Of a stretch of 46,237 bases of DNA, positions 15,673 to 36,489 are shown piece after piece. A program made the position numbers and the translations under genes. Location of the stretch: the IMG/VR virus record IMGVR_UViG_3300031372_000011, positions 1 through 46,237 of that record. One strand, written 5' to 3'. Numbering within the stretch: position 1 is the first letter of the stretch; each line of letters begins with the position of its first letter. The notes under the pieces were generated by a model that saw nothing but the letters and a program-made list of their open reading frames with translations, was not told where the DNA came from and did not search any database. Source of the DNA: a virus.

Positions 15673-15723
15673 AAATACCCCTATATCAAATTTCAATAAA
15701 TCACTTAGTTTTATTAAGAATAA

Positions 15724-15732
15724 TGCTATAAT
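15724..15732 (+). promoter_or_regulatory. Extended -10 promoter element (TGcTATAAT) for the membrane moron
   Basis: A perfect TATAAT (15727-15732) with an upstream TG lies in an AT-rich intergenic region about 40 nt upstream of the CAGGAG RBS and ATG. Confidence 0.5.
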
Positions 15733-15771
15733 TTAACACAACCATTTCTTCATGTTTTATCAGGAGCAAAA

Positions 15772-18813: not shown

Positions 18814-19143
18814 CTAAATTACCGATGGTTCCCGAAGGTCATAGATCAGCATCGTGACAGCAAACGGCAGATTGCCCTGCTGCAACTTCTCCTCCTCTTC
18901 ACCACCACGGTTGCGATCCATATAGCCCAACAGCACGAGCAGCGCATTCTGCACGCGAGTCAGCGCCTCAGTGTTCTGAATAACTGCGTCATTCTCACCG
19001 ACTATCAAAGCCCTGCTGCCTTGGATATAGGCAAGAATTGCCGCGCTGCCGCCCTGAATTTTCAATGTCAGATCGTCGTCGCCGTAGTCATCATCGATGC
19101 GCAGATGGGCTTTTGCCTGTTCAAGGCTCACAAGTTCGATCAT
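18814..19143 (-). CDS. Head-tail connector protein (gp6-like)
   Basis: The N-terminal segment LEQAKAHLRIDDDYGDDDL is typical of gp6-like connectors. The position also fits. Confidence 0.7.
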   Translation of the reverse strand: MIELVSLEQAKAHLRIDDDYGDDDLTLKIQGGSAAILAYIQGSRALIVGENDAVIQNTEALTRVQNALLVLLGYMDRNRGGEEEEKLQQGNLPFAVTMLIYDLREPSVI

Positions 19144-20174: not shown

Positions 20175-21523
20175 GAGTTGATTATTCCTTTCAGCACGGT
20201 TTTTACGATAAAGGCTTCACTTTCTGAAAGTGCCTTATTACCAGGATCTGCGGGGTCATCATCGGCCGCTGCCGTTGCAGCACCGGAGGTGCTAAACGGG
20301 TCAGGACGAGCATCACGTTTCGCCAGCGCCTCGAGGCTGTAGTTTTGCTGCTGGAGATAAGGCGATTCACCACCGACAACCGGCGGCATGTTCTCTTTCT
20401 TCCTGGCCTCATTCGGCGAGAGCAACGCACTTTTAACGCCATCGCCCAACACTTTGTAGCGAGTTTGCGTATCCATGCGCAGCAGTACATCGAGGTCAAA
20501 CTCAACACCTGTTTTTTTGTCCAGAGCCAATCCCTCATCCATCAGTATTTCCATGGCCTCGATAAGCGACTGCAGACATTGAGAATAATATTGCTGATCT
20601 AATGCTTCGATATTGCTAACCGCTGGCAAATTCCCAATCCCGCCCTTATAAAGGGGAACGTGGAACGTTGAAAAGATAATTTCCGCAGTCATTTTCAACT
20701 GTTCTACCACTTGAGAGTCAGCCGCGCTCATGGCCATTGGAGCATAAGTAGCCCCGTCAGCCAGCACCGCAGTACGACCTGCGTTTTCACCTGAATACCC
20801 AGACTCCCAGGACTCTTTGATAATTGCTATTTTCTCTTTACTGACGCTACCAGGTAGGGTGAGCACCCCTGCTGGTTTACCGCCATTCTTGAAGAACAGC
20901 GCGTTGCCGTTCTGGATGTAAAACCCCTGCATTGCAGAAATACCGCAGGCAAAAATTGGAGATAGTCCAACCAGTGGATGAAACAAACAGTTGAATCGGT
21001 CGTGAATAATCTCTCTCGCCGGCACAGTTACCGACGTATCAAGGCCGGAGATGTTATCCGCCATCAGCTGGTAGAACACCGCCCCATCATCGGATACCAG
21101 AGGGGTAACGCGATTGGGATCCAGTACACGCCATTCCTTCACATCACCTTTGGCATCGCGCACTTGCAAAACGTAGGTGTTGCCATGGGCCAACTTGGAG
21201 ATCAGCCAACTCTCAAAAAACTGTATCCGAGTCTGGATTGAATTTGGTTTTGCCAGCAGCCTGGCGATCGGGTTGTCTTTATCTATATCCTGCCAGATAC
21301 CATCCGAGGTTTTCCCTTTAAGCAAGGCAGGCATTTTTGATATATCGCTGGATATCAGGCTAATGCACGTAAAGACAGCGTGGTTAGCCAGAACAACATC
21401 CTGGCTTACCTCGATATTTTTCTGCCAAGCTCCCGCAAATGCCTCGCGGATCAGCGAAACCCAGCCACCACGGCTGTTAGGTTGCTGTAGCGATTTTTCT
21501 TTTCGCTTAAAGGGATTCCACAT
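20171..21523 (-). CDS. Portal protein (HK97 family)
   Basis: The 450-aa ORF has typical HK97-type portal segments (HAVFTCISLISSDISKMP, GNTYVL, HDRF...HPLVGLSP, AEIIFSTFHVP). Confidence 0.88.
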   Translation of the reverse strand: MWNPFKRKEKSLQQPNSRGGWVSLIREAFAGAWQKNIEVSQDVVLANHAVFTCISLISSDISKMPALLKGKTSDGIWQDIDKDNPIARLLAKPNSIQTRIQFFESWLISKLAHGNTYVLQVRDAKGDVKEWRVLDPNRVTPLVSDDGAVFYQLMADNISGLDTSVTVPAREIIHDRFNCLFHPLVGLSPIFACGISAMQGFYIQNGNALFFKNGGKPAGVLTLPGSVSKEKIAIIKESWESGYSGENAGRTAVLADGATYAPMAMSAADSQVVEQLKMTAEIIFSTFHVPLYKGGIGNLPAVSNIEALDQQYYSQCLQSLIEAMEILMDEGLALDKKTGVEFDLDVLLRMDTQTRYKVLGDGVKSALLSPNEARKKENMPPVVGGESPYLQQQNYSLEALAKRDARPDPFSTSGAATAAADDDPADPGNKALSESEAFIVKTVLKGIINS

Positions 21524-21728: not shown

Positions 21729-23672
21729 TCAGGTTGTAGAGTTGGCACCGTAGTTAACGTTGGTAACGCGTGCAACAGCTGCGCTACGGCGACGCTTCCA
21801 GTTAATCCAGCGCTCTGCGCGGATTGCTACACTGTTGGTCTGCCACATAGATACCAACTCGGTACCTGTTGGCGTAACGCTATCACCCGTTGGTGCACTC
21901 TCCATTTCCAGAGAAGCTTCGCTGGACATGTCAACGGCTACGCCGCCGTCATCCGCCAGGTAGATATCCGGCGCATTCACAAGAACCAACTGATTCCCAA
22001 CGTACTGTGAAACGATCGCTGGAAGTCCTTGGAAAGTCCCGCCAAGCATGGTCATCTCAGGGTATTCCTTCTGACCCAGCGGGTTCTTACGCATAGAGAG
22101 CGCCAGCGCAGTGGTACTGGACATGAGCCACACGCCGCCTGTCGGTTGCAGTTCGGCATCAATGAATTGGCCGAAGGCAGCTGCAGCATCATCGTCTGGG
22201 TTACCAGTTGAAGGGATACCCACAATTCCATTGGTGATCGATGCCGGTGATACTCCCGCAACCTCCGCTTTCGCCGGGTTAATGAAGTCAGTATCCAGAC
22301 GAGCAATAACTGACTCTGCCAGGCCATTACGAACCAAGGCATCGGCTGATGGCGTGGAGAATCGGATCAGCTCTTCGGTCAGTACAGAAATTGCAGCAAC
22401 TTTGGCAAACCCGAAAGTGATTGATTCAAAATCGAATTTGGTTAATGGCTTCGGCTTACCCTGGCCAACCCATTGCGCAGCACCGCCGCTGGTCTGAGCA
22501 TTAACACGAATGTTGAATGGCACTTGGCGCAATGCTGGAATACCACCCTGACCAAAGCGACCAATAATGGTTTGAGGACGCAGGAATTCAACGAAGTCAT
22601 TCGCGAAATCCTGATATTCGACCAGAGAACCAGCCCAAGTAGGATCGGTTGTGGTACCAGCACTCACCGCCGCCTTCAGGACGTGGTGCAGCTTGGTGTC
22701 ATCCGGATACTTACTTTTTGCAATTGTCAGCGCTTCAGAACGGATCCCCTTGGCTGCCGCAAGCGATTTGGTGAATCGGGCGAAGGCAATCCCTTTTTCA
22801 AGCTTCTGCTCCACACGAATGATGCCGGGTGCGCGGTTGTCCACGACGGCCACCGTGCCGCTTGCTGCCTTAGCCACTGGCTTGGCGCTATTAGCCTGAG
22901 CCTTTTCCATGTCATGTAGGCGAACCAGATGGATGTCCACGGATTTAATTTCTGACGAGTTCAGCTCGTACTGCTCTTCTTCTTCGGCATCCAGCGTGCG
23001 GCCTTCTTCGGCAGCCTTGGCCATGATGGTATCCAATGCCGCTGCCAGCGCTGAACGCTTAGACTCGAAGCTCTTGATCTGCTCTGCGAGGTTCATATTT
23101 TTTCCTTTATTTTCAGTTAGTTTTTTTGCTGTAGCGCCAGCGGGGGTATTGAGTTTTACGACCGGTTTTTCATTGCCTGACGCGGCGAAAAACTGATGGT
23201 CGAGAGATTTAATGGTCTGGATGGTGCAATCGGCATTTGCCGGGATAGTCACGGCTGAAACCTCGAAGAGGTCCCATGAGATAAATTTGATCCCGTCGTC
23301 CAGGTAGGAATATTCAATTGGCAAGAAACCAATGGATAACCCACCAACAAGCCCCGATTTGATTGATGCCCATGCCTCATCAAGGCGGGCGGCCAGTTGT
23401 GACGGCATGTCCGGTGTTGGCTTCACCAACCTGGCGGTGATCTGGATCCCCTCTTTCACCAGCGACGGTGTGCAGTTGCCGATCGGTTGAGACCGGTCGT
23501 GCTGCCAAAGGAATGGGGTACTTTCGCGAAACTTCGCGCCGGTTGGCTCCATGACGTCGCCGTAACGATCTGGTGTTGGTGTTGACGCAATGCCGGTAAT
23601 TTCACGCAGTTCCTCGTTAACGGCCTTGAGCGTCATGAGGCTGTAGGCGCGTTTCTGCGTCTTATCAGTCAT
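21729..23672 (-). CDS. Prohead serine protease (HK97/S78-like) fused to an HK97-fold major capsid protein
   Basis: The first ~180 aa are protease-like (GIASTPTPDRYGDVMEP...FLWQHD...). A coiled-coil delta-like segment (NLAEQIKSFESKRSALAAALD...) and a capsid body follow in one 647-aa ORF. Confidence 0.8.
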   Translation of the reverse strand: MTDKTQKRAYSLMTLKAVNEELREITGIASTPTPDRYGDVMEPTGAKFRESTPFLWQHDRSQPIGNCTPSLVKEGIQITARLVKPTPDMPSQLAARLDEAWASIKSGLVGGLSIGFLPIEYSYLDDGIKFISWDLFEVSAVTIPANADCTIQTIKSLDHQFFAASGNEKPVVKLNTPAGATAKKLTENKGKNMNLAEQIKSFESKRSALAAALDTIMAKAAEEGRTLDAEEEEQYELNSSEIKSVDIHLVRLHDMEKAQANSAKPVAKAASGTVAVVDNRAPGIIRVEQKLEKGIAFARFTKSLAAAKGIRSEALTIAKSKYPDDTKLHHVLKAAVSAGTTTDPTWAGSLVEYQDFANDFVEFLRPQTIIGRFGQGGIPALRQVPFNIRVNAQTSGGAAQWVGQGKPKPLTKFDFESITFGFAKVAAISVLTEELIRFSTPSADALVRNGLAESVIARLDTDFINPAKAEVAGVSPASITNGIVGIPSTGNPDDDAAAAFGQFIDAELQPTGGVWLMSSTTALALSMRKNPLGQKEYPEMTMLGGTFQGLPAIVSQYVGNQLVLVNAPDIYLADDGGVAVDMSSEASLEMESAPTGDSVTPTGTELVSMWQTNSVAIRAERWINWKRRRSAAVARVTNVNYGANSTT

Positions 23673-23691
23673 TACTGACCTCCTGAAACGG

Positions 23692-23711
23692 AAAAACCCG
23701 CCGAAGCGGGT
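23692..23711 (-). terminator. Hairpin plus T-run between TerL and the protease-capsid gene
   Basis: On the minus strand, ACCCGC-TTCG-GCGGGT is followed by TTTTT. The same stem sequence occurs at 8797-8812. Confidence 0.55.
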
Positions 23712-23730
23712 GTGTTTTTGATGTGTTCTA

Positions 23731-25392
23731 TCAAATGAAATGGACTTGGAAATCTCTCAGCTTGGCGGCCGGGTTTAGCGCCATCAGGGAAACGGCATTA
23801 AACAGGGCCATCAATGGGTCAATCTTCCCGGCACCGCTGACCTGCTTTGTAATGAGGATGGCGTTGCCGCGTGGCTCAACCTTGGCGTTACCTACACACC
23901 AAACCATCAAAGGCTGGCCACCATGGATCAGCCCGCCCTCAGCAAGCTTTCTTTCTGTAGTCTTGATCGCGCCGCCAAGGCGCCAACCCTGGCTGATGCC
24001 TACCACTTTTTCCTGATCGATTTCGGCAGCGACCAACTCATCCAAAATTGCGCCAATACCCGATGGGTCCACGCCGATCTTGTCGAGTAAATCCGCCGCC
24101 TCGATCATGGAAACCCGCTCGGCCACCTCCTGGGTATCCTGGCCAAGAAACTCAACCAGGGTAAGATCACCGGCAGCAACGAAGTCCATCAGCTTTGACG
24201 CCTCACTTTTACGCCGATCAAGCACCGACTGGTGCGCCCAGGCATGCGTCCAGGCCAGCCACTCACGCGTGGTTTTATCCCGGCCAACGACCGCCATACC
24301 CAGTAAGTCATCCAGCCCACCGCCATCGATGCCGACCGTGACCACCTCAGCCCGATCCAGAATTTCTTCGAAACTGACGTTTTTACGTGCCTGGGCTTCC
24401 CAGAACTCGGCGCCTGCCCAGCGGTCGCTGCGCAAGTTGAGACCCATCTCGACATTGAGATGTTTCGCCAAGAACTGCTGCAGCGTGCCGCCGGTTTTGT
24501 TCTGGTTTTTCTTCAGCTCGTCAACCAGCCACTCGGCGCTGACAGAACGTCCAATGTTGGGGTTGGTGATGTAGAAGTTTTCAGGCTGCAAGTAGCCCTT
24601 GGATTCAATGATGTGATCGGGGAACTCATACAGGATGCCCAGCGTCTTAAGATCTGGGATCTTGCCATCACGAACATCACGCCAGTAACCCAATTTATCC
24701 TTGAACACGCCCGCCGGCGGATCATCGCTTTGGGTTGTGAGGTAAATTACCCAACCCTCATCACGCGACACCTGACCACCCAGCGCCTCCATGAACATGG
24801 CCTCGGCGTTGGCACGCTTACCGAAAAGCCAAAGTTCGTCCACCAGCACACGCCCAGCTTTCTTACCGGAGACCGTATCGGTATCGGCCGCTACGACTTT
24901 CAAAGTGTTGCGAGTAACGCGATGGGTAATCGTTCTGATGTGGTCCTGAATCTGGAACATATCAGACAACTCATCATCTGCCCGGATCATGCCAGCGGCA
25001 GGCTTGAAGCTGTTATCGGCAACCTCTTTTGTTGGCGCCAGAATCAGGTGTTCTTCATCCTCCCGCCAGCAAAGTATGAGCGCCGTCAGCATGATGCCCG
25101 CGGCAATTGTCGATTTGGTATTCTTCTTGGAGATAAGCAGCCCGTATTCACGGATCAGCTGCTTGCCGGTTTCGGCTTCGTACCCGCCAAAAATAGCACT
25201 GACGAAATCAAACACCCATTGCTCGGAGCACTCGCCAAACGTTGGCTTGCCGGGCAGGTCTGACACACGCAGCTCTTTGAATATGGATAGTGCCTGGTCT
25301 GCCTGGTCTTTGAAGATCGGTGGCGGAATGATCGAGGCTTTCTCCACCAACCTCTTTGCCCAGTCAGTGCAGGCCGTTGACCACTCAGCCAT
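23731..25392 (-). CDS. terL: Terminase large subunit
   Basis: The 553-aa ORF has a Walker A-like region (LISKKNTKST), VLVDELW (Walker B-like) and a C-terminal nuclease-type region. It lies next to TerS. Confidence 0.88.
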   Translation of the reverse strand: MAEWSTACTDWAKRLVEKASIIPPPIFKDQADQALSIFKELRVSDLPGKPTFGECSEQWVFDFVSAIFGGYEAETGKQLIREYGLLISKKNTKSTIAAGIMLTALILCWREDEEHLILAPTKEVADNSFKPAAGMIRADDELSDMFQIQDHIRTITHRVTRNTLKVVAADTDTVSGKKAGRVLVDELWLFGKRANAEAMFMEALGGQVSRDEGWVIYLTTQSDDPPAGVFKDKLGYWRDVRDGKIPDLKTLGILYEFPDHIIESKGYLQPENFYITNPNIGRSVSAEWLVDELKKNQNKTGGTLQQFLAKHLNVEMGLNLRSDRWAGAEFWEAQARKNVSFEEILDRAEVVTVGIDGGGLDDLLGMAVVGRDKTTREWLAWTHAWAHQSVLDRRKSEASKLMDFVAAGDLTLVEFLGQDTQEVAERVSMIEAADLLDKIGVDPSGIGAILDELVAAEIDQEKVVGISQGWRLGGAIKTTERKLAEGGLIHGGQPLMVWCVGNAKVEPRGNAILITKQVSGAGKIDPLMALFNAVSLMALNPAAKLRDFQVHFI

Positions 25393-25395
25393 GGA

Positions 25396-25854
25396 TTACC
25401 CCTTGTTGTTGACCACCAGCTTTGGCGGCGCCATCGCGCCAAACTTTCCACGCCCGGCAGCAACTTGTGCAGCAGCGTTTCGAGCGTCTTTCTTTCCGCC
25501 CTCGCCTTTCTTGGGATGGATATAAGGAAGCATCGCCTTGGCGGCATCCTTTCGGGTATCGATATCTTTGCCCGTGTCGTTCATAACCGATCGGAGAAAA
25601 TCCAGCGGGTCTTCATACTGAGCAGGTGCTTTGCTCTCTTTTACTTGCTCGCTCTTTGGCTGCGGCTGATCAGCGGTTACCGTAACTTCACCTCGTTTTG
25701 AATTGATAAACGCGATGACATCCGGGTCTTTATTCAGCTGCGAGCCTTTGGAACGCGCCGATTTCTCAGAGTACCCCGCCTTGATGGCAGCGGCGGCCTG
25801 AGTGGAGCCGGACATCAGCGCGATGGCAAATTTGCGCTTCTGCCCTGTTAACAT
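25396..25854 (-). CDS. terS: Terminase small subunit (P27/Terminase_2-like)
   Basis: The N-terminus reads MLTGQKRKFAIALMSGSTQAAAAIKAGYSEKSA (HTH). The ATG at 25854 is preceded by GGAGG. The track start at 25869 is a TTG. Confidence 0.75.
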   Translation of the reverse strand: MLTGQKRKFAIALMSGSTQAAAAIKAGYSEKSARSKGSQLNKDPDVIAFINSKRGEVTVTADQPQPKSEQVKESKAPAQYEDPLDFLRSVMNDTGKDIDTRKDAAKAMLPYIHPKKGEGGKKDARNAAAQVAAGRGKFGAMAPPKLVVNNKG

Positions 25855-25951
25855 GTTTATACCCTCCAAAGGGGATTTTTTCTGCGCGTGAGAGGGGGCG
25901 AGGTTTCGCGGTTATTTTGCCCGAAAAATTGTTTATCCCCCCCCGGCATCA

Positions 25952-25982: not shown

Positions 25983-26082
25983 ATTTCACTTTGAAATCGA
26001 AAATGATAATCAATATCATTCGAATTGAAATGATTTCACAATGAAACCACTTGTTGGGAATGGATATCATTTCACATTGAAC
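25983..26082. repeat. Three direct repeats ATTTCAC(W)(W)TGAA in the packaging-region intergenic (candidate cos/terminase-binding elements)
   Basis: The copies are ATTTCACTTTGAAA (25983-25996), ATTTCACAATGAAA (26033-26046) and ATTTCACATTGAAC (26069-26082). Confidence 0.45.
26002..26020. promoter_or_regulatory. Second near-palindrome AATGATAAT-C-AATATCATT (Fur-box-like, one mismatch)
   Basis: Read directly from the sequence, 50 bp from the first palindrome. Confidence 0.45.
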
Positions 26083-26393
26083 TATTGCGAATGATTCATA
26101 TCCTGCTTGGTCTTCTTCCCATGGCATCCATCAGGCCCATTGCAAAGGATCTGGCAGTTGGCATCGCTGTCTTCACCACCCATATAGAGGGGCACGATGT
26201 GGTCCAGGTCGAAGCCATGAGGGTATTCAGTCACACGACCACACTGGGTGCAGCATGGGTCCCGCTTCCATATCCGCATGCGCCGCTGCTGCAGGGCATA
26301 GCCAGTAATGCGGGTATCAGCAACTACCATGGGCTGGATGCGCCGTGTGTCCTGCACCTTGACCCTGGGCTGCAATGTCTTTAGTCGTGCCAT
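26082..26393 (-). CDS. HNH endonuclease (HK97 gp74-like, packaging-associated)
   Basis: The motifs CTQCG...DLDHIVPLYMGGEDSDANCQILCNGPDGCHGKKT are present, and the gene lies directly upstream of the terS region. Confidence 0.85.
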   Translation of the reverse strand: MARLKTLQPRVKVQDTRRIQPMVVADTRITGYALQQRRMRIWKRDPCCTQCGRVTEYPHGFDLDHIVPLYMGGEDSDANCQILCNGPDGCHGKKTKQDMNHSQ

Positions 26394-26395: not shown

Positions 26396-26590
26396 TTATT
26401 CCAATGTGATCGTTATCGGGTCTTCGACCTGCTCAGCTCTCAACGTGAACTGCACATTGATGATCGGCAATTCATTGGCGCTGCTGATGATGTTTGTGTT
26501 GATCTGTTGTTCAACCAATACACCATCAACTGCAACGCCATACCCAAAGAAGGTATCGCATCGGTATATCTTCGCTAACTGAAGCTTCAT
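26396..26590 (-). CDS. Hypothetical protein (64 aa)
   Basis: The ORF has an ATGA overlap with the upstream methyltransferase gene. Confidence 0.45.
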   Translation of the reverse strand: MKLQLAKIYRCDTFFGYGVAVDGVLVEQQINTNIISSANELPIINVQFTLRAEQVEDPITITLE

Positions 26591-27222
26591 AGTTCTGCTC
26601 GCTTGAATGCGTAACTGCCGATGCCATCACGGCCCAGCATGCTTTCACAGGTGTTGTGCTCAACGCAGATGAACCCCTGTTCAGCGAACCAACGGATCAG
26701 GCCATCGTGCGTCCAGTACCATATGTGCTCGTCCTTGCGGTAATGCCGCGAGGATAGAATGTGCTCAGCACCATTGAAGATGGGGATGGAGACGAACACC
26801 CACTCGGATGCCTTAGCCACCGCATCTTCTGGCTTATCGATGTGTTCCAACGCATCCCAGAACGTAAGCGCCGGAAAGCGGTCTTCCGGCAGCCAGGCAT
26901 CGTAAAGGTTGGCCCACTTGCCCAACTTCTTCAGCCACTCAACACCAGCAGGATTGACGTCATAACCCCAGGTATCAGGACGGGCACTGACGAACTGACC
27001 GGCACCAATACCCACATCAAGAACAGTACCCTGATAATGGCGCGCTACCAGCTGCAGGCGAGCCATTGTGAGTTGGTGGCCTAGCGGGGTGTCTGCCAGC
27101 TTCTGATAACGATCGAAGTAACCATGGTCATATGGCCGGGCCTCGGGCACCGGGTAGCGACCCATGCCCAACTCAGGCAGCCACACCAGGCCATTGCTTA
27201 ATTCATTCAAGAACGATTTCAT
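26587..27222 (-). CDS. Class I SAM-dependent methyltransferase (small-molecule/sugar O-MTase-like, not a DNA MTase type)
   Basis: Motif I is VLDVGIGAGQF. The later segments GYDVNP and FWDALEHIDKPEDAV are typical of the Methyltransf_11/23 type. Confidence 0.7.
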   Translation of the reverse strand: MKSFLNELSNGLVWLPELGMGRYPVPEARPYDHGYFDRYQKLADTPLGHQLTMARLQLVARHYQGTVLDVGIGAGQFVSARPDTWGYDVNPAGVEWLKKLGKWANLYDAWLPEDRFPALTFWDALEHIDKPEDAVAKASEWVFVSIPIFNGAEHILSSRHYRKDEHIWYWTHDGLIRWFAEQGFICVEHNTCESMLGRDGIGSYAFKRAEL

Positions 27223-28072
27223 TCAACCACCCGGTGAATTTGCTTTCGAAGTTACTGATGCGTTTATCGCATCGGTGATCAGCGCGAGTGCACTGACAGT
27301 AATTATCTGGGATCGCCCAGCGCGTTTTGCTCAAATCCATTTCCTGATCGGTCACTATGCGGGGTGCGTTATGGCCACCGCGGCCACCGGCTACAACAAA
27401 CAGCGGTGTCTTGTAGGCGATCGCCATCGGTATTGAAAAGCCAACAGGGCTTACCACTGCTGCTGCGTGCTCATACAGGGTGCACAGTTGGGTAACACTC
27501 AGCTCACCGCTATGCAGTTTCAGGTCCGCTTCGGGGCTTGGCCCTACGATCCATTCCTGACCAACCTCGATATCAGCCACACTAACCACAAAGAAGCCCT
27601 GCTGGCGTAACAGCTTGGCCGCGGTACATAGGTAGGCTGGTTCGGGGTTACGTGAGGCGCTGGCCCATTCTGTTCTGATCGTTCCTGGCCTGATGACAAC
27701 AACACGGCGGTTAGCCGGAATCATCGGGTGGTGATCGTTAAAGCTCGGCAGGTCAAACCGCAAGGGTTGGCCCACAATGAACTGCTTTCTGAATGCCTGG
27801 ATGATGCCGCCGCTGGCCAGTTCCTGTGGGCCGTATGCAATCCGCCGCCTTAACGCCAACGGCGGTGGAGTATGGAAACGGTAATCCGTCCGTCGCTCGT
27901 TCTTACCCTGGGTACGCAGTCCTGTTCCCGATCGGACACAGCGAACATTCAACCCCTGATAAAGTTCTGGCCACGGTGTCCGGATGTAGGCGCCAGGAAA
28001 GTACCGCAGGAACGGGCGCTGATAGATGTTGTCACCAAGGCCAAACATCCCTTCAAAAAATAAAATTGTCAC
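27203..28072 (-). CDS. GT-B glycosyltransferase, family 9 (heptosyltransferase)-like
   Basis: The N-terminus reads ILFFEGMFGLGDNIYQRPFL. The C-terminus reads GELSVTQLCTLYEHAAAVVSPVGFSIPMAIAYKTPLFVVAGG, paralleling the GT9 consensus (..LGD.. / ..GNDSGPMHLAAALGTP.V.LFG). The GTG at 28072 is preceded by AGGAGG and overlaps the upstream stop (GTGA). Confidence 0.55.
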   Translation of the reverse strand: MTILFFEGMFGLGDNIYQRPFLRYFPGAYIRTPWPELYQGLNVRCVRSGTGLRTQGKNERRTDYRFHTPPPLALRRRIAYGPQELASGGIIQAFRKQFIVGQPLRFDLPSFNDHHPMIPANRRVVVIRPGTIRTEWASASRNPEPAYLCTAAKLLRQQGFFVVSVADIEVGQEWIVGPSPEADLKLHSGELSVTQLCTLYEHAAAVVSPVGFSIPMAIAYKTPLFVVAGGRGGHNAPRIVTDQEMDLSKTRWAIPDNYCQCTRADHRCDKRISNFESKFTGWLNEIVLE

Positions 28073-28602
28073 AGTACCTCCTGAAGGCTGGCGCTCCGGA
28101 AGCACCCCAGTTCGGTATGGCGGGAACAGTTGATAATGTCGGCATCATGCAAAGCCAGGCGCGTTTTAAAGAACTCACGTTTCCACCCTGCAATGCTGGT
28201 GGCTGTGGGGTTACGCATACCTTCGTGCGGGCCATGCCAGTGGATACCGGCCTGCAGTGAACAGTCATAGCCCAGCAGGATGATCCGCCGGGCGCCGAGG
28301 GTGTAAGCAAGCTCTATAGCTCTTTGCCCTGAGTTGTGAGGTGCTGGCGTGATGCCGCGGAAGTATTCAAGCGAGTGCCGCCGCGCCACCGCCGGGATGA
28401 AACAGAACTTGCGCATGCCAGCAGGGATTTCCCCAGCATTACGATCCCACCAATCACCGTCACCGGCGCAAATGGCCATACTGAATGGAACTGCGCGCCA
28501 GGTGCTATTGACGGCTATCGATTCAATACCAGATAACCGGAGGGCCAGGCAGTCCTCGCTGTTCAGTGATGGCCCGCTTGCAACGCAGGCCATTACTTTC
28601 AT
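28069..28602 (-). CDS. MptE/DUF115-like Rossmann protein (Maf-type putative sugar transferase family)
   Basis: The motifs VASGPSL, AVNSTW, GDGDWW and NSGQRAIELAYTLGARRIILLGYDC match the DUF115 layout as I remember it. This is not verified. Confidence 0.45.
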   Translation of the reverse strand: MKVMACVASGPSLNSEDCLALRLSGIESIAVNSTWRAVPFSMAICAGDGDWWDRNAGEIPAGMRKFCFIPAVARRHSLEYFRGITPAPHNSGQRAIELAYTLGARRIILLGYDCSLQAGIHWHGPHEGMRNPTATSIAGWKREFFKTRLALHDADIINCSRHTELGCFRSASLQEVL

Positions 28603-28835
28603 GCCGTTATGCCAACGGTCTGCTTATCATGCAGAGCCGAATTGGTATAGGTCGCCACGGTGCGGTTATTACTGTTGACCAGGTAAGCGGTATCGCCGGG
28701 CTGGAGGTCTACCACATTGCTTTCGTTATCAGCAGTGACAACGTGCAGTTGGCGGCCCTCTCTTTTGTACTCCCAACGCTTAACCGCATCCCCTATCTCA
28801 TTCTGCCCTTGGGTTACTATTTTCAATGTGTACAT
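28599..28835 (-). CDS. Hypothetical protein (78 aa)
   Basis: The ORF has an ATGA overlap with the downstream DUF115-like gene. Confidence 0.45.
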   Translation of the reverse strand: MYTLKIVTQGQNEIGDAVKRWEYKREGRQLHVVTADNESNVVDLQPGDTAYLVNSNNRTVATYTNSALHDKQTVGITA

Positions 28836-28909: not shown

Positions 28910-28930
28910 AAAAAACCCGCCGTAGCGGGT
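28910..28930 (-). terminator. Intrinsic terminator
   Basis: On the minus strand, ACCCGC-TACG-GCGGGT is followed by TTTTTT. Confidence 0.55.
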
Positions 28931-28951
28931 TATCTTGGTGATGATCGACTT

Positions 28952-29206
28952 TTACTTCTTGCCGTTGGCTTCTGCCATTTGCTGGTACACCGGCGCGCTT
29001 CCACCTGGTAGTTGCTTACTCACGTCACGATAGTGAGCCAACCGCTCAAGAAAGTATTCACGAAGATGCAGAGGTTGCTGTGAAGCCACCTCTGCTGGTA
29101 CCACCGGCATGTTCATCCGTTCCTTGTAAGCAACGCCACTGGCAGCAAGATCAACGTTGACCTTATCCATTTCTTCTTTTGGTAAATCGGCGAGATTATA
29201 AGACAT
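28952..29206 (-). CDS. Hypothetical protein (84 aa)
   Basis: The ATG at 29206 lies downstream of AGGAGG. The track start at 29215 is a TTG. Confidence 0.45.
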   Translation of the reverse strand: MSYNLADLPKEEMDKVNVDLAASGVAYKERMNMPVVPAEVASQQPLHLREYFLERLAHYRDVSKQLPGGSAPVYQQMAEANGKK

Positions 29207-29244
29207 ATCTGGCAATCCTCCTGGTTTAGGGGATTATAGCCTGA

Positions 29245-30516: not shown

Positions 30517-30811
30517 TTCTGCCTTTTTCCCGTTGCCACTTTATTAATCCATCGATACGCGATGCGCACACGTCCAACTCGCTCTGTGCCACCTGTAGCG
30601 ATATCACCGCATCGCCGAACGTGTTGCCGGTGAACGGGGTCTGTTTGCATTGTTGGAGCAGTACAGCGGGCGGGTACACGTAGATCAGCTTAGGGGGCGC
30701 TGGCGGGGGCCGTATCCTCTCGGCGCAGGATACGCTTAACATCATCAGGCAAAGGCTGATTGCCAGCGTCACTATACTCCAGCGCCTTGCGTAATTTTCC
30801 GTTTTCAGCAT
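30485..30811 (-). CDS. o-spanin (Rz1-like outer-membrane lipoprotein), overlapped architecture
   Basis: A signal with lipobox (LCLMMLSVSC) is followed by a proline-rich segment (IRPPPAPPKLIYVYPP). The reading frame overlaps the 3' part of the i-spanin gene. Confidence 0.6.
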   Translation of the reverse strand: MLKTENYARRWSIVTLAISLCLMMLSVSCAERIRPPPAPPKLIYVYPPAVLLQQCKQTPFTGNTFGDAVISLQVAQSELDVCASRIDGLIKWQREKGRNEAKEAGHKI

Positions 30812-31061
30812 CGGCCTTGGCCCTCTTCTGCTGTTCAATCTTGAGCTGCTCCTCGGTCGCTCGCCGGTCAGCGTCGATTGACCCTTTTAGCCCGGTGATC
30901 GTTTCATCACGATCTGACACCGCCTTGTTGAGGTCTTTGTTAGCCTTGCTAAGCTTCTGGTTTTCCTCATTGGCATTATCGAGCCTGTGGTTGAGTACGG
31001 CGCTAACCCCTCCCAGGCTGATAGCCAGAAAAAGTAATCCAACCAGGCCATACTTCATCAT
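30690..31061 (-). CDS. i-spanin (Rz-like)
   Basis: An N-terminal TM segment (LVGLLFLAISLGGVSAV) is followed by a coiled coil. The ORF has an ATGA overlap with the endolysin. Confidence 0.7.
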   Translation of the reverse strand: MMKYGLVGLLFLAISLGGVSAVLNHRLDNANEENQKLSKANKDLNKAVSDRDETITGLKGSIDADRRATEEQLKIEQQKRAKADAENGKLRKALEYSDAGNQPLPDDVKRILRREDTAPASAP

Positions 31062-31681
31062 GACAACACCTTGCGTGCGCGCTGATAACGAGCGGTGCGG
31101 TCATCGAGGCCATTCAGGCCGCCGTTGATGATCTTCGTGACCTTCTCTACGTCGGCACCGTACTTGCCACATTTGTTTGCCGCCCAGAACCAGCCGGCGG
31201 AGCGCATTGCGTAGGAGTCCTGCTCCAGCAACTCGGGCACCAGTACCAGGTCAACCTTCAGCACTGCGCTGCAGGCGCGGTAATTATCCAGACCGGTGAT
31301 CTGCATTGGCCCACGCCCTCGGTATTTCCAGCCGTCACCGGCCGCTTTATTGCCCATGCGGTTGGAATAGACCAGGTTAGCGATCGCTGCCTGCCGGTTG
31401 GCGGGCACCACCTTTTCCCCTGGCTGGCGGCCCAGCATAGAACACTGCTCGGCAGATAGGCGGTGGCCGAACGTCGCCTTTAAACCCGCCACACCGTAGT
31501 TGAACGACTCAACCGAAGCGGTAAAGCCACCGGATTCGTGCCCAACCTGCGCAATGAACATCGCCTGCTCGATCACTGATGTGATGCCGAACTCTTTAAA
31601 AGTGGCGTCGATATGCGGAAACCAGCGCGCAGCCAGTTCGGCGCTGATGCCAGCCGCCTGCTGAAATTGTTCTTGGGTCAT
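31058..31681 (-). CDS. Endolysin, glycoside hydrolase family 19 (chitinase-like)
   Basis: The motifs FIAQVGHESGGF, YRGRGPMQITG and INGGLNGLDDR are present. The ATG at 31681 overlaps the holin-like stop (ATGA). Confidence 0.85.
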   Translation of the reverse strand: MTQEQFQQAAGISAELAARWFPHIDATFKEFGITSVIEQAMFIAQVGHESGGFTASVESFNYGVAGLKATFGHRLSAEQCSMLGRQPGEKVVPANRQAAIANLVYSNRMGNKAAGDGWKYRGRGPMQITGLDNYRACSAVLKVDLVLVPELLEQDSYAMRSAGWFWAANKCGKYGADVEKVTKIINGGLNGLDDRTARYQRARKVLS

Positions 31682-31962
31682 GAGTGTTTTCTCTGGAGAG
31701 GTTTCGCCAGGCGCATGATGTTGCCGCGGGAAGTCCAAACAGCAACGCAGAAGCCTATGTTGATCAGAGTTTCCGACCAGTTGGCATTGAAGTAGTCGCC
31801 AGTTAGCGTCCGGATCGTCACCGAGGCGCTGGCCACTATCAGCAAATAGGCAAAAAACGACGCGATAGGTCGGTGTGTAGCGCCGTTTCGGCTGTAGGCC
31901 AACAGGCGCAAGGAAATAGCAGCACAGACAATCGCATTAACCGTCAGCAGGTAATCATTCAT
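31678..31962 (-). CDS. Holin-like membrane protein (94 aa, ~3 TM segments)
   Basis: The ATG at 31962 is preceded by GAGGGGG. The protein has hydrophobic segments and lies upstream of the endolysin. Confidence 0.55.
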   Translation of the reverse strand: MNDYLLTVNAIVCAAISLRLLAYSRNGATHRPIASFFAYLLIVASASVTIRTLTGDYFNANWSETLINIGFCVAVWTSRGNIMRLAKPLQRKHS

Positions 31963-32350
31963 CGGGTCCCCCTCGCCGCCTGATGATATCCAGTGCATTT
32001 GGGTCTGATGATTTAGCGATCAGCATCATCAGCAACCTGACGGCCACAGCCCCACCGACCAAAGCACCGATGGTGTCATCGACCTCGATGTGGTTGCCCG
32101 GCATCACGGATAAACAGGCTTCAATAACATCTGCAAAAAAAGCAGCTGAAAACATGCCAGTTAGGAACGATAAGACAAACATCCATATCTTTTTGAGAAG
32201 AGAGAACTCACTGGATGACATAACGAAAACTGCCGCCCCGGCAAATGCCCCAATCACTACAGCAGGGTCCAGATTGGAAAACAGCCCAACTAATGTGACG
32301 CCGGTAACTGTCGCTGCTGCCGCCCCACTTCCCGAGATCGGCTCGCTCAT
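31955..32350 (-). CDS. Holin / holin-associated membrane protein (131 aa)
   Basis: This is the first gene of the lysis cassette. It has a strong AAAGGAG RBS and multiple hydrophobic segments. Confidence 0.55.
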   Translation of the reverse strand: MSEPISGSGAAAATVTGVTLVGLFSNLDPAVVIGAFAGAAVFVMSSSEFSLLKKIWMFVLSFLTGMFSAAFFADVIEACLSVMPGNHIEVDDTIGALVGGAVAVRLLMMLIAKSSDPNALDIIRRRGGPDE

Positions 32351-32795: not shown

Positions 32796-33470
32796 TCATG
32801 CTGTTAAAAGTTGCTTTCTCGCAATTCTGTGACCAACAACACAATGCAGTGCATTGGCATCCAGAGCAGTAACCAGCTGCAAAATGCACTCCCAATGCTC
32901 AGCGTAATGCATCTGCCAGTTACTGCGCTGCACACCCGTTAGCTCAGCCAGCTTGGCGTATTGGTAGATACCGCAGCCTTGCAATGATCCGTATTCACTG
33001 GCCCTCTGCTGAACAGCCAGCCATACCAGGCTTTCTATCCGCTTTAGAACTTTGCCGGTCATTTTCTTGCCCTGCATACCAGACAAAAAATCAGCCCAGA
33101 CATACCGACATATAGCAACCTGCCCATCAAAGTTAAGGTCATGCGCGTAACAGTAACGGATCCAGGCATGCTGCGGCGTATCCAGAACGCTGACCGCCCG
33201 GCGCCATGAGCTGGTGCAATATGTTAATTCATGTAAAGGCGGGAATGGCCTAACCCTGGTGCGCGTTTCGGGGCAATGAATAGGATCGGTTTCCGGGCAC
33301 ACCTTGCGGTTGCCAACTACCACCGTGCGGTGGCGCTGACGCTTGAACCGCGTGGTGTGCGCCAGTGCCGCACTCTCGAATGCGGCCAGTTGTCCTTTGG
33401 TCATCCCGTGGATATCGGCCAGGGCCAACGATACAGCGCCGCGAACATACTCTAGATATTGCTGATTCAT
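32796..33470 (-). CDS. Putative late-gene antiterminator (Q-like)
   Basis: This is the last gene before the late promoter, terminators and lysis cassette. The segment AWIRYCYAHDLNFD resembles antiterminator-Q families as I remember them. The call is mostly positional. Confidence 0.5.
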   Translation of the reverse strand: MNQQYLEYVRGAVSLALADIHGMTKGQLAAFESAALAHTTRFKRQRHRTVVVGNRKVCPETDPIHCPETRTRVRPFPPLHELTYCTSSWRRAVSVLDTPQHAWIRYCYAHDLNFDGQVAICRYVWADFLSGMQGKKMTGKVLKRIESLVWLAVQQRASEYGSLQGCGIYQYAKLAELTGVQRSNWQMHYAEHWECILQLVTALDANALHCVVGHRIARKQLLTA

Positions 33471-34507
33471 TTTTTTGCCCCGCGCTTATTTGCTGTGACG
33501 ATTACCCCGAGGCCGTACGCCCGATCGAGGGTACGCGCCAGGTGATAAAGTTGGCTGCCGTGTTCGGCCTCCCATGCCGCCACATTGTCATGCAACTTGT
33601 TGTGGCACTCCCTGGTGAGAGGAATGGCGAATATGTCGTGTGGTTTGGTGCCGGTACCGCCGAAGCCCTGATCGATGATGTGGTGCGGGTCATCCGCCGG
33701 GCGCCCGCAACCGCAACAACACACCTGCGATTTAACCCACTGGGTGTACTTCTCGCACTCCCACCGCTTCATCTTGGGCCGCAGCATGAAACCTGCTGGT
33801 GGCTCGGGATCGATGTCGACCGCCAGCACCGGCTTAATCTGCTCCACGTAGTCATTGATGACTTCGACTGGTGCGCGCTCCCAGGTGATATCCGCCTCTC
33901 TTCGGGTACCGGTTAGAACCTCTGCTGGTGGCAGGCGCAGAGAGAACCTAGCCACAGAGTCCGGCAACAGGTCGGAAACCTGCTCCATCACAGCCCACCA
34001 GCACAGTTCCGGCAGGCTCAGTTGGTGGTTTTCGTCAAAGCGGAAATGCGTACGGGCACGGTACAGGATGAAATCCGCCACGTTCCTGATGGCCAGATCA
34101 TCGAGGGCCGGTAACGTCTGCTCGGCCAGAGTGTGTTCGTGATGCCAACACAGGCGAACTGCGCCATCGCCGTACCGCAGCGTGCTCATGTTCCGATCGT
34201 GATAATCGTCAGCGGGAGCGTGCCACTGGCACTCGTTCGACCGGTCTAGCCAGTCCACCAGCGCATTAATGCCACCAGCGGCAACAAGAACCCGCTTATT
34301 GGAGAAGAAAGAGGAAAGGCGTGGATCAGCGGCAAGGTGCTGGCTGGCCACCGGCACCAACCCGGACGGCAATGGATTAAGCTCTGCAGGCTCACTGGCA
34401 ATCAGCAGCCGCGCACGGCCGGTGAAGTAATGGAGCAGATCCCGACCAGGGCGCAGCAGCACCACGCCCAGATCACGCTGCACGTAAGGAGTGAGCAGCA
34501 TCTTCAT
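33467..34507 (-). CDS. DUF968-domain protein (HNH-like Zn-ribbon/His-Me C-terminal domain)
   Basis: The C-terminus reads WVKSQVCCCGCGRPADDPHHII...GTKPHDIFAIPLTRECHNKLH. The ATG at 34507 overlaps the C5-MTase stop (ATGA). Confidence 0.6.
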   Translation of the reverse strand: MKMLLTPYVQRDLGVVLLRPGRDLLHYFTGRARLLIASEPAELNPLPSGLVPVASQHLAADPRLSSFFSNKRVLVAAGGINALVDWLDRSNECQWHAPADDYHDRNMSTLRYGDGAVRLCWHHEHTLAEQTLPALDDLAIRNVADFILYRARTHFRFDENHQLSLPELCWWAVMEQVSDLLPDSVARFSLRLPPAEVLTGTRREADITWERAPVEVINDYVEQIKPVLAVDIDPEPPAGFMLRPKMKRWECEKYTQWVKSQVCCCGCGRPADDPHHIIDQGFGGTGTKPHDIFAIPLTRECHNKLHDNVAAWEAEHGSQLYHLARTLDRAYGLGVIVTANKRGAKK

Positions 34508-36489
34508 GCAGCCACCTCCCGGCGTGGTACACACATTTCCGGTAGATTGGCACGGACCAGCGCTTCAGCAAATGGAGGCGGTACCGCATTGCCACAGCGG
34601 GCTACTTGTTTATCCTTCGCGTATTTCTTGCCCTTGTAGTCCTGATCGATGATATACCAGGATGGGAAACCCTGAGCAGCGTAAAGCTCATGCGGTTGCA
34701 GCATACGCATGCCAATATCAACGATCTGGTAATCGATGCCCTCTACCGTGACCAGGCCAAAGCGGTCGTTGGTTGTGACGGTGTGCAGTGGATCCGCGAG
34801 GCTTACCCCTTCTTTCTCGTTGCCGTAGTATTTCAGCAGGAAGGCGCGAACCTCACCAAAGTGATTGCCACCGGCGGTTACCGTCTGCAGCGGTGCTGTG
34901 ACTTCCTGGCCAATGTTGGTACCGCGCATCTTGATAAGGTTGGATGTGACCAGAGAGTTGTGATCGGTTGTCGTCACCGTATGCAAAGGACTGGCCAGAT
35001 CAGAGCCCGGACCGGTATAGTTGCCGCCGAAGTGTTTGGCCAGGAACGTAGCCACCAACTGGCTTTTGCCACCACCGCCAGCAGTGATCGTGCCATTTGG
35101 CTCATCTACAGCATGCCCTACGCTGTTGCCGAACTGGCGCGCAATGAGCGGAGCTACCACCAGGTGCTCTGCTTTAGTCGTGACTGTTGTTAGCGGTTTG
35201 TCTGCCTCATAGGCCAGGCGATCACCACCAAATCCTGTCTGGCCAATGCGGGCAATGACTGGCGCAATAACACAGGAATGGTTTGTATTGCACAGCGTAT
35301 GCATCGGCTGATCTACAGATCGCGGTTTCGCGGAGTATTTAGGGCCGCCAGCACCAGCGATAAACGGGGCCAATTTCGCCTCAACCATTCCCATAGCATG
35401 CCCATTACCGCCTGGCCGCTCGGAACTACCCGCCGTGATGGTGGAAAGCGGCTCGTCACATTCTTGTCCGGTGGCTCCGGTGCGGAACTTGGTGATGTGT
35501 GGCGATACCAGCGCGTAACCATGGGTTTTCGTGATCGTCTGCAGTGGTTCAGCCAGTGACTGGCCACGGAAACAGTTGTAGACCGTTTTAGTGCTGGTAT
35601 GGTTGCACTTCACGATAAACGGCGCCGGGCTATCGATAACAAAGCGCTGAATGCCGCGGGCAATACGGCGCAAGGTGTTTTCGGCCAGCGGTCGCTTGCG
35701 CTCGAAGATACTCGGGCAAGGAATAGACCAATCAATGCACTCCGCCGCGGTGCGCCATGGCTTCAGCTTGCCGCTTTGGACTTCCAGCGATTTCGGATCC
35801 CCGTGGGTAGGCTCTGGCCAGACAATTGGCCGCCCGTCGCGACGCATCAGCATGAAGAAGCGTTTACGGATGGTTGGCGCGCCATAGTCACAGGCCCGCA
35901 GCTCACGGTAATCGACAACATAACCCAGACCGGCAATCAGCCGGTTGTGATCGTCACTACCCACTTCAATGCCCAAAATGTCGCAGCATTCGGCCAGCGC
36001 CGGGTGATCTGCTTCTATGCCGGTGGTCAGCATTGCCACAAATCCTGCGAATGTTTCCCCTACACGGGCAGGACATGGGTAATTATTGCCGTTTTCGTCG
36101 GTGACCAACGGCCCCCACGTCTTGAATTCTTCCACGTTTTCCAGCGGGATTACCCGAGGGCGGGCCTTTAATATCCAGCGGATAACGATCCAAGCAAGGC
36201 CGCGAATTTCTTTCTTAACCGGCGCGCTGCCCTTGGCCTTGCTGAAATGACGACAATCAGGACTGAACCATGCAAGGCCGATGGGTTGCCCTGCGGTCGC
36301 AGCTACCGGATCGATATCAAAGACGGACTCGCAGTAGTGAAGCGTATCGGGGTGGTTGGTTTCGTGCATCGCAATAGCGTTTTCGTCGTGATTAATCGCA
36401 ATGTCAACGCTGCGCCCAGTGGCCATCTCAATGCCGGTACTCGCCCCACCGCCGCCAGCAAAATTATCTACTATCAGTTCACGGATCAT
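34504..36489 (-). CDS. DNA (cytosine-5) methyltransferase with an expanded, internally repetitive target-recognition region
   Basis: The conserved motifs are I (DNFAGGGG), IV (FSPDCRHFS), VI (PLENVEEF), VIII (PTIRKRFFML), IX (MRMLQPHELYAAQGFP) and X (CGNAVPP). Eight PLxT(I/V)T-type modules lie between motifs VIII and IX. Confidence 0.85.
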   Translation of the reverse strand: MIRELIVDNFAGGGGASTGIEMATGRSVDIAINHDENAIAMHETNHPDTLHYCESVFDIDPVAATAGQPIGLAWFSPDCRHFSKAKGSAPVKKEIRGLAWIVIRWILKARPRVIPLENVEEFKTWGPLVTDENGNNYPCPARVGETFAGFVAMLTTGIEADHPALAECCDILGIEVGSDDHNRLIAGLGYVVDYRELRACDYGAPTIRKRFFMLMRRDGRPIVWPEPTHGDPKSLEVQSGKLKPWRTAAECIDWSIPCPSIFERKRPLAENTLRRIARGIQRFVIDSPAPFIVKCNHTSTKTVYNCFRGQSLAEPLQTITKTHGYALVSPHITKFRTGATGQECDEPLSTITAGSSERPGGNGHAMGMVEAKLAPFIAGAGGPKYSAKPRSVDQPMHTLCNTNHSCVIAPVIARIGQTGFGGDRLAYEADKPLTTVTTKAEHLVVAPLIARQFGNSVGHAVDEPNGTITAGGGGKSQLVATFLAKHFGGNYTGPGSDLASPLHTVTTTDHNSLVTSNLIKMRGTNIGQEVTAPLQTVTAGGNHFGEVRAFLLKYYGNEKEGVSLADPLHTVTTNDRFGLVTVEGIDYQIVDIGMRMLQPHELYAAQGFPSWYIIDQDYKGKKYAKDKQVARCGNAVPPPFAEALVRANLPEMCVPRREVAA

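Follow-up and report, generated by a model that had tools for sequence, protein, structure and literature searches.

The 46,237 nt viral sequence described here (IMG/VR virus record IMGVR_UViG_3300031372_000011, positions 1 to 46,237; hereafter the window, which means this whole stretch) carries three consecutive minus-strand genes, referred to as genes 1, 2 and 3, which encode a DUF115/MptE-like protein, a compact glycosyltransferase of the GT-B type and an S-adenosylmethionine (SAM)-dependent methyltransferase, respectively. We propose tentatively, and with rather less than even confidence, that this trio is a pathway, expressed late, whose enzymes build a glycan on virion proteins. Glycosylation and O-methylation of virion proteins is the best-supported reading because TibC/Aah and Maf, the closest relatives of the two transferases to have been characterized, are cytoplasmic protein O-glycosyltransferases that use sugars of the lipopolysaccharide (LPS) type, because the three genes are predicted to be expressed together with the late genes, and because the cassette is found recurrently in a head/neck position.

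The genes themselves are not new. A preliminary description of this DNA had held that no system of this composition was known from an enterobacterial siphovirus, and while the trio proves to be present in many deposited phages, full-text literature searches (including DUF115 phages, heptosylation, D3, PAJU2 and capsid glycosylation) found no functional study of the cassette. What is new is that the trio is shown here to form a late-operon module that is conserved across phages of Proteobacteria and is in places fused, that the gene 2 glycosyltransferase is recognized, from its modelled structure, as a TibC-like enzyme of minimal size in which a metal-type knuckle is conserved, and that a testable hypothesis, virion glycosylation from LPS-precursor sugars, can be put forward.

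Gene layout and overlaps

When read base by base, the minus strand from 28835 to 26082 is a tight string of genes, composed as follows:

28599..28835, minus strand: orf78, a small open reading frame (ORF) upstream of the cassette, coupled to gene 1 by ATGA; matches phrog_3909 (E-value 1.5e-8)
28069..28602, minus strand: gene 1, 177 aa, DUF115/MptE-like single-domain protein, candidate glycosyltransferase of the CMP-sugar (Cst-II/Maf) type
27203..28072, minus strand: gene 2, 289 aa, GTG start, predicted compact GT-B glycosyltransferase, GT9/TibC-like
26587..27222, minus strand: gene 3, 211 aa, class I SAM-dependent methyltransferase of the small-molecule O-methyltransferase type
26396..26590, minus strand: orf64, a small ORF downstream of the cassette, coupled to gene 3 by ATGA; matches phrog_10235 (E-value 5.6e-23)
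26082..26393, minus strand: terminase-associated HNH endonuclease (Pfam HNH, E-value 4e-7; phrog_589, E-value 5e-23)

The start/stop overlaps of the three genes are all as given in the preliminary description. The stop codon of orf78 overlaps the start of gene 1 in the ATGA at 28602-28599, the stop of gene 1 overlaps the GTG start of gene 2 in the GTGA at 28072-28069, genes 2 and 3 overlap by 20 nt at 27222-27203 (the gene 3 ATG is at 27222 and the gene 2 TGA at 27205-27203), and the stop of gene 3 overlaps the start of orf64 in the ATGA at 26590-26587. The further claim that the flanking small ORFs and the HNH gene belong to the same string stands for orf78 and orf64, although the HNH gene is not overlapped and starts 2 nt past the orf64 stop codon. 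The ORF-listing program gave gene 2 as a longer ORF from a GTG at 28105; the GTG at 28072 is the better start, since it has an AGGAGG 5 nt upstream, the N-termini of 42 gene 2 homologues coincide with it, and on a contig of 97 % identity the gene was independently called at 289 aa.

The three genes are genuine and not chance ORFs, since each has hundreds of homologues and their order is kept. The small orf78 was seen only in the close relatives L003 and L113 and is for that reason not considered part of the conserved module; orf64, too, is not kept with the cassette in distant loci. Nucleotide megablast searches of the cassette against phage and E. coli collections, and of the right end of the window against E. 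coli, gave no match, from which we conclude that E. coli is not the host.

Relationships of the encoded proteins

The gene 2 product matches phrog_6804 (E-value 4e-105), a family of unknown function in PHROG. The preliminary description took it to be an enzyme of family GT9, and this is upheld at the level of fold and not of formal family membership: there is no Pfam or NCBIfam match, including to the NCBIfam model for bacterial autotransporter heptosyltransferases (BAHT), and the Pfam GT9 family PF01075 matches none of 42 gene 2 family members. PDB sequence searches with each of the three proteins singly returned noise only, and with the gene 2 family profile the sole match was WaaF (E-value 0.34). 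The AlphaFold2 (AF2) model (pLDDT 97.2) is predicted to be a compact GT-B fold, and its closest Foldseek matches are TibC (E-value 9e-8), WaaF (2e-7), the GT9 protein 3tov of Veillonella, and WaaC. These four occupy ranks 1-26, 28, 30, 32 and 36, with E-values from 9e-8 to 1e-3 and query-normalized TM-scores (TMq) of 0.44-0.61; T4 beta-glucosyltransferase (beta-GT) is not among the top 50 matches. When the gene 2 profile was compared by hhalign with TibC (sequence taken from the genome of enterotoxigenic E. coli H10407), the C-lobe core was aligned (probability 69.5 %, E-value 4e-5).

The protein opens with the first strand and a GLGD motif (residues 4-14), and DSSP assigns to the N-lobe of the model strands at 4-7, 28-32, 43-47 and 74-77 and helices at 12-22, 35-38, 53-61 and 82-98. 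Across the 42 sequences the invariant residues include D14 of the GLGD motif and C259, C261, H266 and C268, which make up a CxCx4HxC knuckle (three Cys and one His over 10 residues) between the last C-lobe strand and the C-terminal helix. The suggestion that TibC/Aah might be the relevant relatives has thus gained substance from the top structural rank of TibC, from an N-lobe that is likewise small and four-stranded, and from a conserved Cys/His knuckle located as the iron finger is in TibC, and the model supports a gene 2 product that is GT9-like by fold. Gene 2 and its relatives make up a small, separate family: clustering at 50 % identity gives 905 clusters, 598 of them at an E-value of 1e-30 or better.

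The gene 1 product matches phrog_4603 (E-value 8e-47), for which the annotators' label is 'alpha-2,3-sialyltransferase'. Its assignment to the DUF115/Maf type is sound by fold and profile, in that 37 of 40 relatives match PF01973 (MptE-like/DUF115, a Pfam family that includes Maf) at an E-value of 0.01 or better (best 5e-8) and many relatives bear a precomputed PF01973 label, although gene 1 itself scores 21 bits, under the 34.6-bit cut-off, and over residues 91-117 only. Both of the motifs on which that assignment was originally based are present, ASGPSL at residues 8-13 and NSGQRAIELAYTLGARRIILLGYD at residues 90-113. The invariant residues include G10, P11, S12, L13, N90, S91, G92, L109 and G111, with D113 almost invariant, and the family motifs are ASGPSL, AVN, AxDxxWW, NSG..AI..A..LG...LLGYDCS and HWHGxH, the last of these being, by inspection only, a candidate catalytic-His motif.

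Single-protein and profile searches of PDB sequences with gene 1 gave only noise or nothing meaningful. With the AF2 model (pLDDT 94.7), the best fold overlap in the PDB is to Cst-II (2x61; TMq 0.58, Foldseek probability 0.96, E-value 0.034), whereas the highest probability, 0.98, is that of thiamin pyrophosphokinase, with a TMq of 0.38-0.42. In BFVD there are many viral DUF115/MptE-like neighbours, with E-values down to 1e-10, and a GT29 sialyltransferase-like protein. By eye and without gaps, the GPSL, N32 and NSG...LLGxD of gene 1 line up with GNGPSL, N31 and TSG...LSGID of Cst-II (sequence checked against 1RO7); the hhalign alignment of the gene 1 family with Cst-II covers GPSL and N31/N32 only. 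We conclude that gene 1 encodes a minimal DUF115 domain that is most likely a cytidine monophosphate (CMP)-sugar transferase, with a diphosphokinase as a real alternative.

Gene 3 was described as a class I SAM methyltransferase of the small-molecule type and not a DNA methylase, and we agree. It matches Pfam Methyltransf_23 (E-value 6.6e-11; 42.6 bits against a 27-bit cut-off) and phrog_6564 (E-value 2e-88), contains an invariant SAM motif DxGxGxG at residues 69-75, and as a profile finds the UbiG O-methyltransferases as the best match among PDB sequences (E-value 3e-4). A motif scan of its 211 residues found no DNA-methylase motif of the form (D/N/S)PP(Y/F/W) or PCQ, and it lacks a target-recognition domain. 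None of the three proteins has a hydrophobic segment and, judged from their sequences, all appear to be soluble cytoplasmic enzymes.

Gene neighbourhoods in other phages and in the window

At least 576 IMG/VR viral contigs encode a relative of the gene 2 glycosyltransferase. The preliminary description had proposed a survey of neighbourhood conservation, and we examined 107 loci, drawn from the best 80 of the at least 576 contigs, 25 genome loci and annotated phages; the order DUF115-glycosyltransferase-methyltransferase is kept in 94 of them, and most of the others are rearranged (glycosyltransferase-methyltransferase-DUF115) or truncated where the contig stops. Terminases and portals next to the cassette often share no more than about 22-25 % identity with their counterparts in the window (terminases about 22 %), and this divergence argues that the trio is a module that moves between phage lineages. 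The hosts of the cassette-bearing phages are almost all Gram-negative. Among deposited phages the trio is present, and partly annotated, in Pseudomonas D3, PAJU2, PMG1 and PP9W2, Enterobacter Mulvp2, Klebsiella Eowyn and a Synechococcus myovirus, the Synechococcus phage carrying the glycosyltransferase and the methyltransferase. Orthologues in D3 (orf7, orf12 and orf13), PAJU2 (ORF010-012), PP9W2, Mulvp2 and Eowyn are 35-57 % identical; the D3 trio has been in GenBank since 2000, and some recent records name the glycosyltransferase 'family 9 heptosyltransferase' or 'GTB-type'.

The DUF115 and glycosyltransferase genes are joined into one ORF in prophages of Bordetella, Castellaniella and Alcanivorax and in two metagenome-assembled genomes, and 9 of 145 family representatives have such a fusion, which in every case follows the order of the genes. 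Other fusions of the glycosyltransferase family are to a methyltransferase, a bona fide Pfam GT9 domain, LicD or extra tandem glycosyltransferase copies. No fused virion domain was found in the long family members, in which the additional segments are glycosyltransferase copies, DUF115, true GT9, LicD, methyltransferase and intein. Since the fusion partners are all glycan enzymes, a shared role in building or decorating a glycan is indicated. Two of the long proteins are of unusual composition: P0303 (1032 aa) has a bona fide GT9 domain split by an intein with a LAGLIDADG domain, followed by a gene 2-type glycosyltransferase, and P0247 (1214 aa) combines DUF115, two gene 2-type copies and a true GT9 domain in one protein.

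Phage hallmark genes in the same orientation lie within 8 kb of the cassette in 19 of 23 genome loci, and in 12 non-enterobacterial prophages a capsid gene is located 1.5-2.5 kb directly upstream. In D3, Psp6, PP9W2 and PAJU2 the cassette genes are interleaved with capsid, adaptor, head-closure and tail-completion genes, and the methyltransferase gene has an overlap with the structural gene that follows it. The DUF115 gene of D3 is parted from the other two by adaptor and head-closure genes and a KilA-N gene; the latter (D3 locus L001, orf11, 7184-7684) encodes a KilA-N/ORF11CD3 domain protein between the head-closure gene and the glycosyltransferase gene and looks like a moron-like insertion inside a split cassette. 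The cassette comes after the tail terminator in Mulvp2 and after gp15 in the T4-like cyanophage, and is a free-standing unit in the Klebsiella jumbo phage. As jumbo and T4-like phages, whose lifestyle we assume to be strictly lytic, carry the cassette, lysogenic conversion is disfavoured as its function.

We note that the depositors of PAJU2 (locus L111, AP009624.1) labelled ORF010 (4450-5019), the DUF115 homologue (40 % identical), as a 'structural protein', the same label as was given to its capsid and major tail proteins, although the basis of this could not be checked and the RefSeq name is alpha-2,3-sialyltransferase. If the label is real, the DUF115 enzyme would be virion-associated. In the nin region of one lambdoid prophage (locus L018), in which the cassette lies between Q and holin, a gene at 3190-3981 encodes a DpdA-like queuine tRNA-ribosyltransferase; a link to 7-deazaguanine DNA modification was considered and rejected, as a DpdA-like gene was near the cassette in only three loci.

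In the window, the PHROG-annotated minus-strand order is Q antiterminator, holin, endolysin, Rz, small ORFs, a DNA polymerase III theta subunit homologue and the cassette, followed by HNH, TerS, TerL, a protease-capsid fusion, portal, connectors and major tail protein. The features concerned are:

32796..33470, minus strand: Q-like antiterminator (phrog_304, E-value 9e-67), marking the start of the late transcription unit with the cassette
31955-32350, minus strand: holin, following Q
31058-31738, minus strand: endolysin, following holin
30690-31061, minus strand: Rz, following endolysin
28914..28931, minus strand: terminator-like hairpin and then a T run (consensus scan and sequence), between the theta-like gene and orf78
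21729..25869, minus strand: packaging and head genes downstream of the cassette (phrog_641 and phrog_617 matches)
25396-25869, minus strand: TerS, packaging gene
23731-25392, minus strand: TerL, assigned indirectly from tblastn matches to annotated terminase genes
21729-23672, minus strand: prohead protease-major capsid fusion, 647 aa, phrog_617

This order, from Q through the cassette to the terminase and head genes, places the cassette inside a Q-dependent late unit, as had been proposed. A consensus scan found no sigma-70-like promoter between the hairpin (28931-28914) and orf78.

Several other features of the window deserve mention. The theta subunit homologue (28952-29215, minus strand; Pfam DNA_pol3_theta, E-value 2e-34) belongs to the late region and lies a short way upstream of the cassette. 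A protease-capsid fusion between TerL and portal is an unusual order that is also found in Pseudomonas phage PAJU2 (ORF003, then the portal ORF006). The portal itself is seemingly split, with a 450 aa portal gene (20171-21523, minus strand) joined by an ATGA overlap to a gene for a 344 aa protein (19140-20174, minus strand). The early region (33467-37355, minus strand) includes two DNA methyltransferase genes (661 aa and 289 aa, the latter also matching a PHROG labelled PAPS reductase) and a 355 aa HNH endonuclease gene directly upstream of Q. The mol% G+C falls to 38-41 (0.38-0.41, as against about 0.52 in the rest of the prophage) at 14001-16000, with a strong negative GC skew, inside an 819 aa ORF (13237-15696) presumed to encode the tape measure protein.

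Possible acceptors and comparison with known systems

In the pathway that we favour, three soluble cytoplasmic enzymes expressed late would build and cap a short glycan. Gene 1 would transfer one sugar, by analogy from a CMP-activated ulosonic acid such as CMP-3-deoxy-D-manno-oct-2-ulosonic acid (CMP-Kdo), gene 2 would transfer another, by analogy heptose from ADP-heptose, and gene 3 would O-methylate the product. The acceptor would most likely be a protein of the assembling virion, part of the capsid or neck region and modified by the enzymes in the cytoplasm ahead of lysis, in parallel with the action of TibC/Aah on autotransporters and of Maf on flagellin. We infer the donor sugars, the reaction order, what is methylated and, most of all, what accepts the glycan. 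A more specific version, which we regard as doubtful, is that the cassette is a kit by which phages of Gram-negative hosts use the host LPS-core precursors CMP-Kdo and ADP-heptose to equip proteins of their own capsid or neck with an inner-core-like glycan bearing a methyl cap, with minimal TibC-like and Maf/Cst-II-like transferases acting as a complex and sometimes fused; were this so, phages of Gram-negative bacteria would gain their first described system for virion glycosylation.

A number of observations weigh against virion proteins as acceptors. Nothing in the data points to a particular acceptor, and the protein at 19140-20174, earlier put forward as an Ala/Pro/Ser-rich substrate, finds no support as a candidate: it is homologous to positions 623-857 of phrog_2271, the C-terminal third of 859 aa portal proteins, its roughly six tandem repeats (PELPDxxxxVxxAVAxAxAAIP) are rich in Ala, Pro and Val and poor in Ser and Thr, and no evidence connects it with the cassette. 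When same-strand ORFs within 1.5 kb of the trio were clustered, no family that might be a dedicated substrate gene was common beyond closely related prophages. Virion proteins of the carriers, whether HK97-like, protease-capsid fusion, T4-like or jumbo, are not related in sequence, whereas the enzymes are 35-55 % identical, and because the enzymes are conserved across unrelated virion proteins either a conserved non-virion acceptor or very loose acceptor recognition fits better; with no substrate gene travelling with the trio, a conserved non-virion acceptor is a serious rival. In many lambdoid enterobacterial prophages the cassette lies between Q and holin, a classic cargo site and not a morphogenesis position. 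The enzyme assignments are also subject to reservations, as TibC and the LPS enzyme WaaF are nearly equal in Foldseek score, and an ADP-heptose donor is not assured since the adenine-binding Arg286 of TibC is Leu in the gene 2 family. Every PDB fold match of gene 1 has an E-value above 1e-3, so that it has no strong solved neighbour, it fits thiamin pyrophosphokinase about as well as Cst-II by Foldseek, and hhalign of the DUF115 profile with Cst-II aligns the N-terminal 55 columns only (E-value 0.009, probability 4.6 %).

A conserved non-virion acceptor could lie in the host envelope. The cassette would then add a Kdo- or heptose-type sugar and a methyl cap to the lipid A-core or to a lipid-linked glycan at the inner membrane, masking the receptor so that superinfection is blocked or fewer progeny are lost on cell debris; we consider both this role and these effects rather unlikely, while granting that they account for several observations. 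In structure, WaaF, WaaC and a further GT9 enzyme rank near the top for gene 2, almost level with TibC, fusions to true GT9 and LicD are typical of LPS or teichoic acid decoration, the hosts are almost all Gram-negative, the Q-holin position in lambdoid relatives is a cargo site, and conservation across phages with unrelated virions is as expected for a conserved host acceptor. However, late expression and translational coupling to structural genes would allow newly made LPS hardly any time to arrive at the outer membrane, lysogenic conversion is excluded for those jumbo and T4-like carriers that are presumed to be strictly lytic, none of the three proteins has a membrane segment, and the N-lobe, which is the acceptor-binding lobe in WaaC and WaaF, is cut to four strands as in TibC. 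Moreover, cyanobacterial LPS commonly lacks Kdo and heptose, and yet the Synechococcus phage has the glycosyltransferase and methyltransferase.

Two further possibilities were weighed. That the product is a small molecule or modified nucleotide, with gene 1 acting as a diphosphokinase of the MptE/thiamin-pyrophosphokinase type to activate a hydroxymethyl compound that the other two enzymes elaborate, for example into a metabolite for host takeover or counter-defence, is in our view unlikely both as a pathway and in that use. It draws on the facts that the sole Pfam family touched by gene 1 is named after a pterin diphosphokinase, that thiamin pyrophosphokinases are its highest-probability PDB fold matches, that the nearest solved relatives of the methyltransferase are UbiG-type small-molecule O-methyltransferases and that phages and hosts of very different kinds have the cassette. 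Gene 1 nevertheless overlaps Cst-II better (TMq 0.58 against 0.38-0.42), has the GT29 sialyltransferase-like protein among its BFVD neighbours and shares the gapless motif line-up with Cst-II (GPSL, N32 and NSG...LLGxD), the fusion partners are all glycan enzymes, and the late structural position differs from that of early host-takeover genes. Least probable of all, and in our estimation a long way from likely, is hypermodification of the phage DNA before packaging, by base glycosylation and methylation, as an evasion of restriction in the next host. DNA is the one substrate that all carrier phages have in common, the cassette adjoins HNH and terminase genes in the window, and Mu Mom is a precedent for a late-expressed DNA-modifying enzyme. 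Phage GT-B enzymes that add Kdo or heptose to 5-hydroxymethylcytosine in DNA have been reported, but these resemble T4 beta-GT and require a cytosine methylase together with a 5mYOX/TET enzyme (bioRxiv 10.1101/2023.12.21.572611). No gene for either of the latter is conserved with the trio, and the window's early genes matched no PHROG family annotated as dioxygenase or hydroxymethylase in a general annotation that included no dedicated search. T4 beta-GT is outside the top 50 structural matches of gene 2, the methyltransferase has neither DNA-methylase motifs nor a target-recognition domain, two DNA methyltransferases are already encoded in the early region, and the DpdA link is confined to three loci.

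If the cassette does glycosylate virions, phage self-glycosylation would reach beyond the mycobacteriophages to hundreds of proteobacterial phages, both temperate and lytic, including the Pseudomonas aeruginosa D3-like phages and Klebsiella jumbo phages, with possible effects on antibody recognition, particle stability, adsorption and therapeutic use. Two minimal enzyme families would also be defined, a 289 aa TibC-like GT-B enzyme and a 177 aa DUF115 domain, which could serve glyco-engineering in E. coli with endogenous donors. Even with LPS or DNA as acceptor, the module is widespread, tightly linked and uncharacterized.

Of the known systems, the BAHT enzymes TibC and Aah provide the closest comparison for gene 2; TibC is cytoplasmic and acts on its protein substrate before export (eLife 2014, PMC4358343). 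Its N-lobe has a four-stranded sheet and four helices and is preceded by an N-terminal beta-barrel (residues 1-97), its C-lobe has an iron finger (Cys339/342/358/370), and its key residues are Asp110, Thr226, Lys230, Arg286, which contacts adenine, and Trp305, which contacts heptose O4 (PMC4358343). The gene 2 model, for which TibC is the top Foldseek match, appears to share the GT-B core and the four strands and four helices of the N-lobe, although at 289 aa against 406 it lacks the beta-barrel. The catalytic Asp of the TibC LGD motif is kept as D14, invariant in the gene 2 family, and Trp305 corresponds to a family consensus Trp that is Phe212 in the window protein, whereas Arg286 aligns with Leu196; Thr226 and Lys230 fall outside the hhalign stretch, and the invariant R133 is a possible substitute. 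The TibC iron finger (four Cys over 32 residues) and the CxCx4HxC of gene 2 (10 residues) are in matching topological positions, metal binding by the latter being putative. No autotransporter gene adjoins the window cassette, the neighbours of which are phage genes only. WaaC and WaaF (CAZy GT9, PF01075) likewise resemble gene 2 in GT-B fold and in the motif pattern of the C-lobe, WaaF being the second-best structural match, but the gene 2 N-lobe is much smaller, PF01075 is unmatched and, by our reading of the comparison in the TibC paper, these enzymes lack the Cys/His knuckle (PMC4358343).

Gene 1 resembles Maf and Cst-II in its GPSL and NSG...LLGxD motifs, its sub-threshold PF01973 match and its best fold overlap, with Cst-II. 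Maf is reported to be able to take CMP-Kdo as a donor (PMC11339370). Gene 1 differs as a single 177 aa domain, without the flanking domains of Maf or the lid and membrane-association region of Cst-II. The phage DNA-glycosylation clusters, which combine a cytosine methyltransferase, 5mYOX/TET and a DNA glycosyltransferase that is T4 beta-GT-like or GT-A, contrast with the trio, with which no further gene is conserved.

Mycobacteriophages use phage glycosyltransferases to modify their own capsid and tail tube, and the logic proposed here is the same, the glycan being on the phage's own virion proteins in their case and proposed from the genes in ours. Those systems operate in actinobacterial hosts with, to our knowledge, different enzyme families, and we know of no DUF115, GT9-like and methyltransferase trio described among them. 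D3, PAJU2, PP9W2, Mulvp2 and Eowyn have the same gene order as the window (with the DUF115 gene of D3 apart from the other two) and the same late or structural context, the window differing in that its cassette is located upstream of HNH-terminase and not after the capsid gene.

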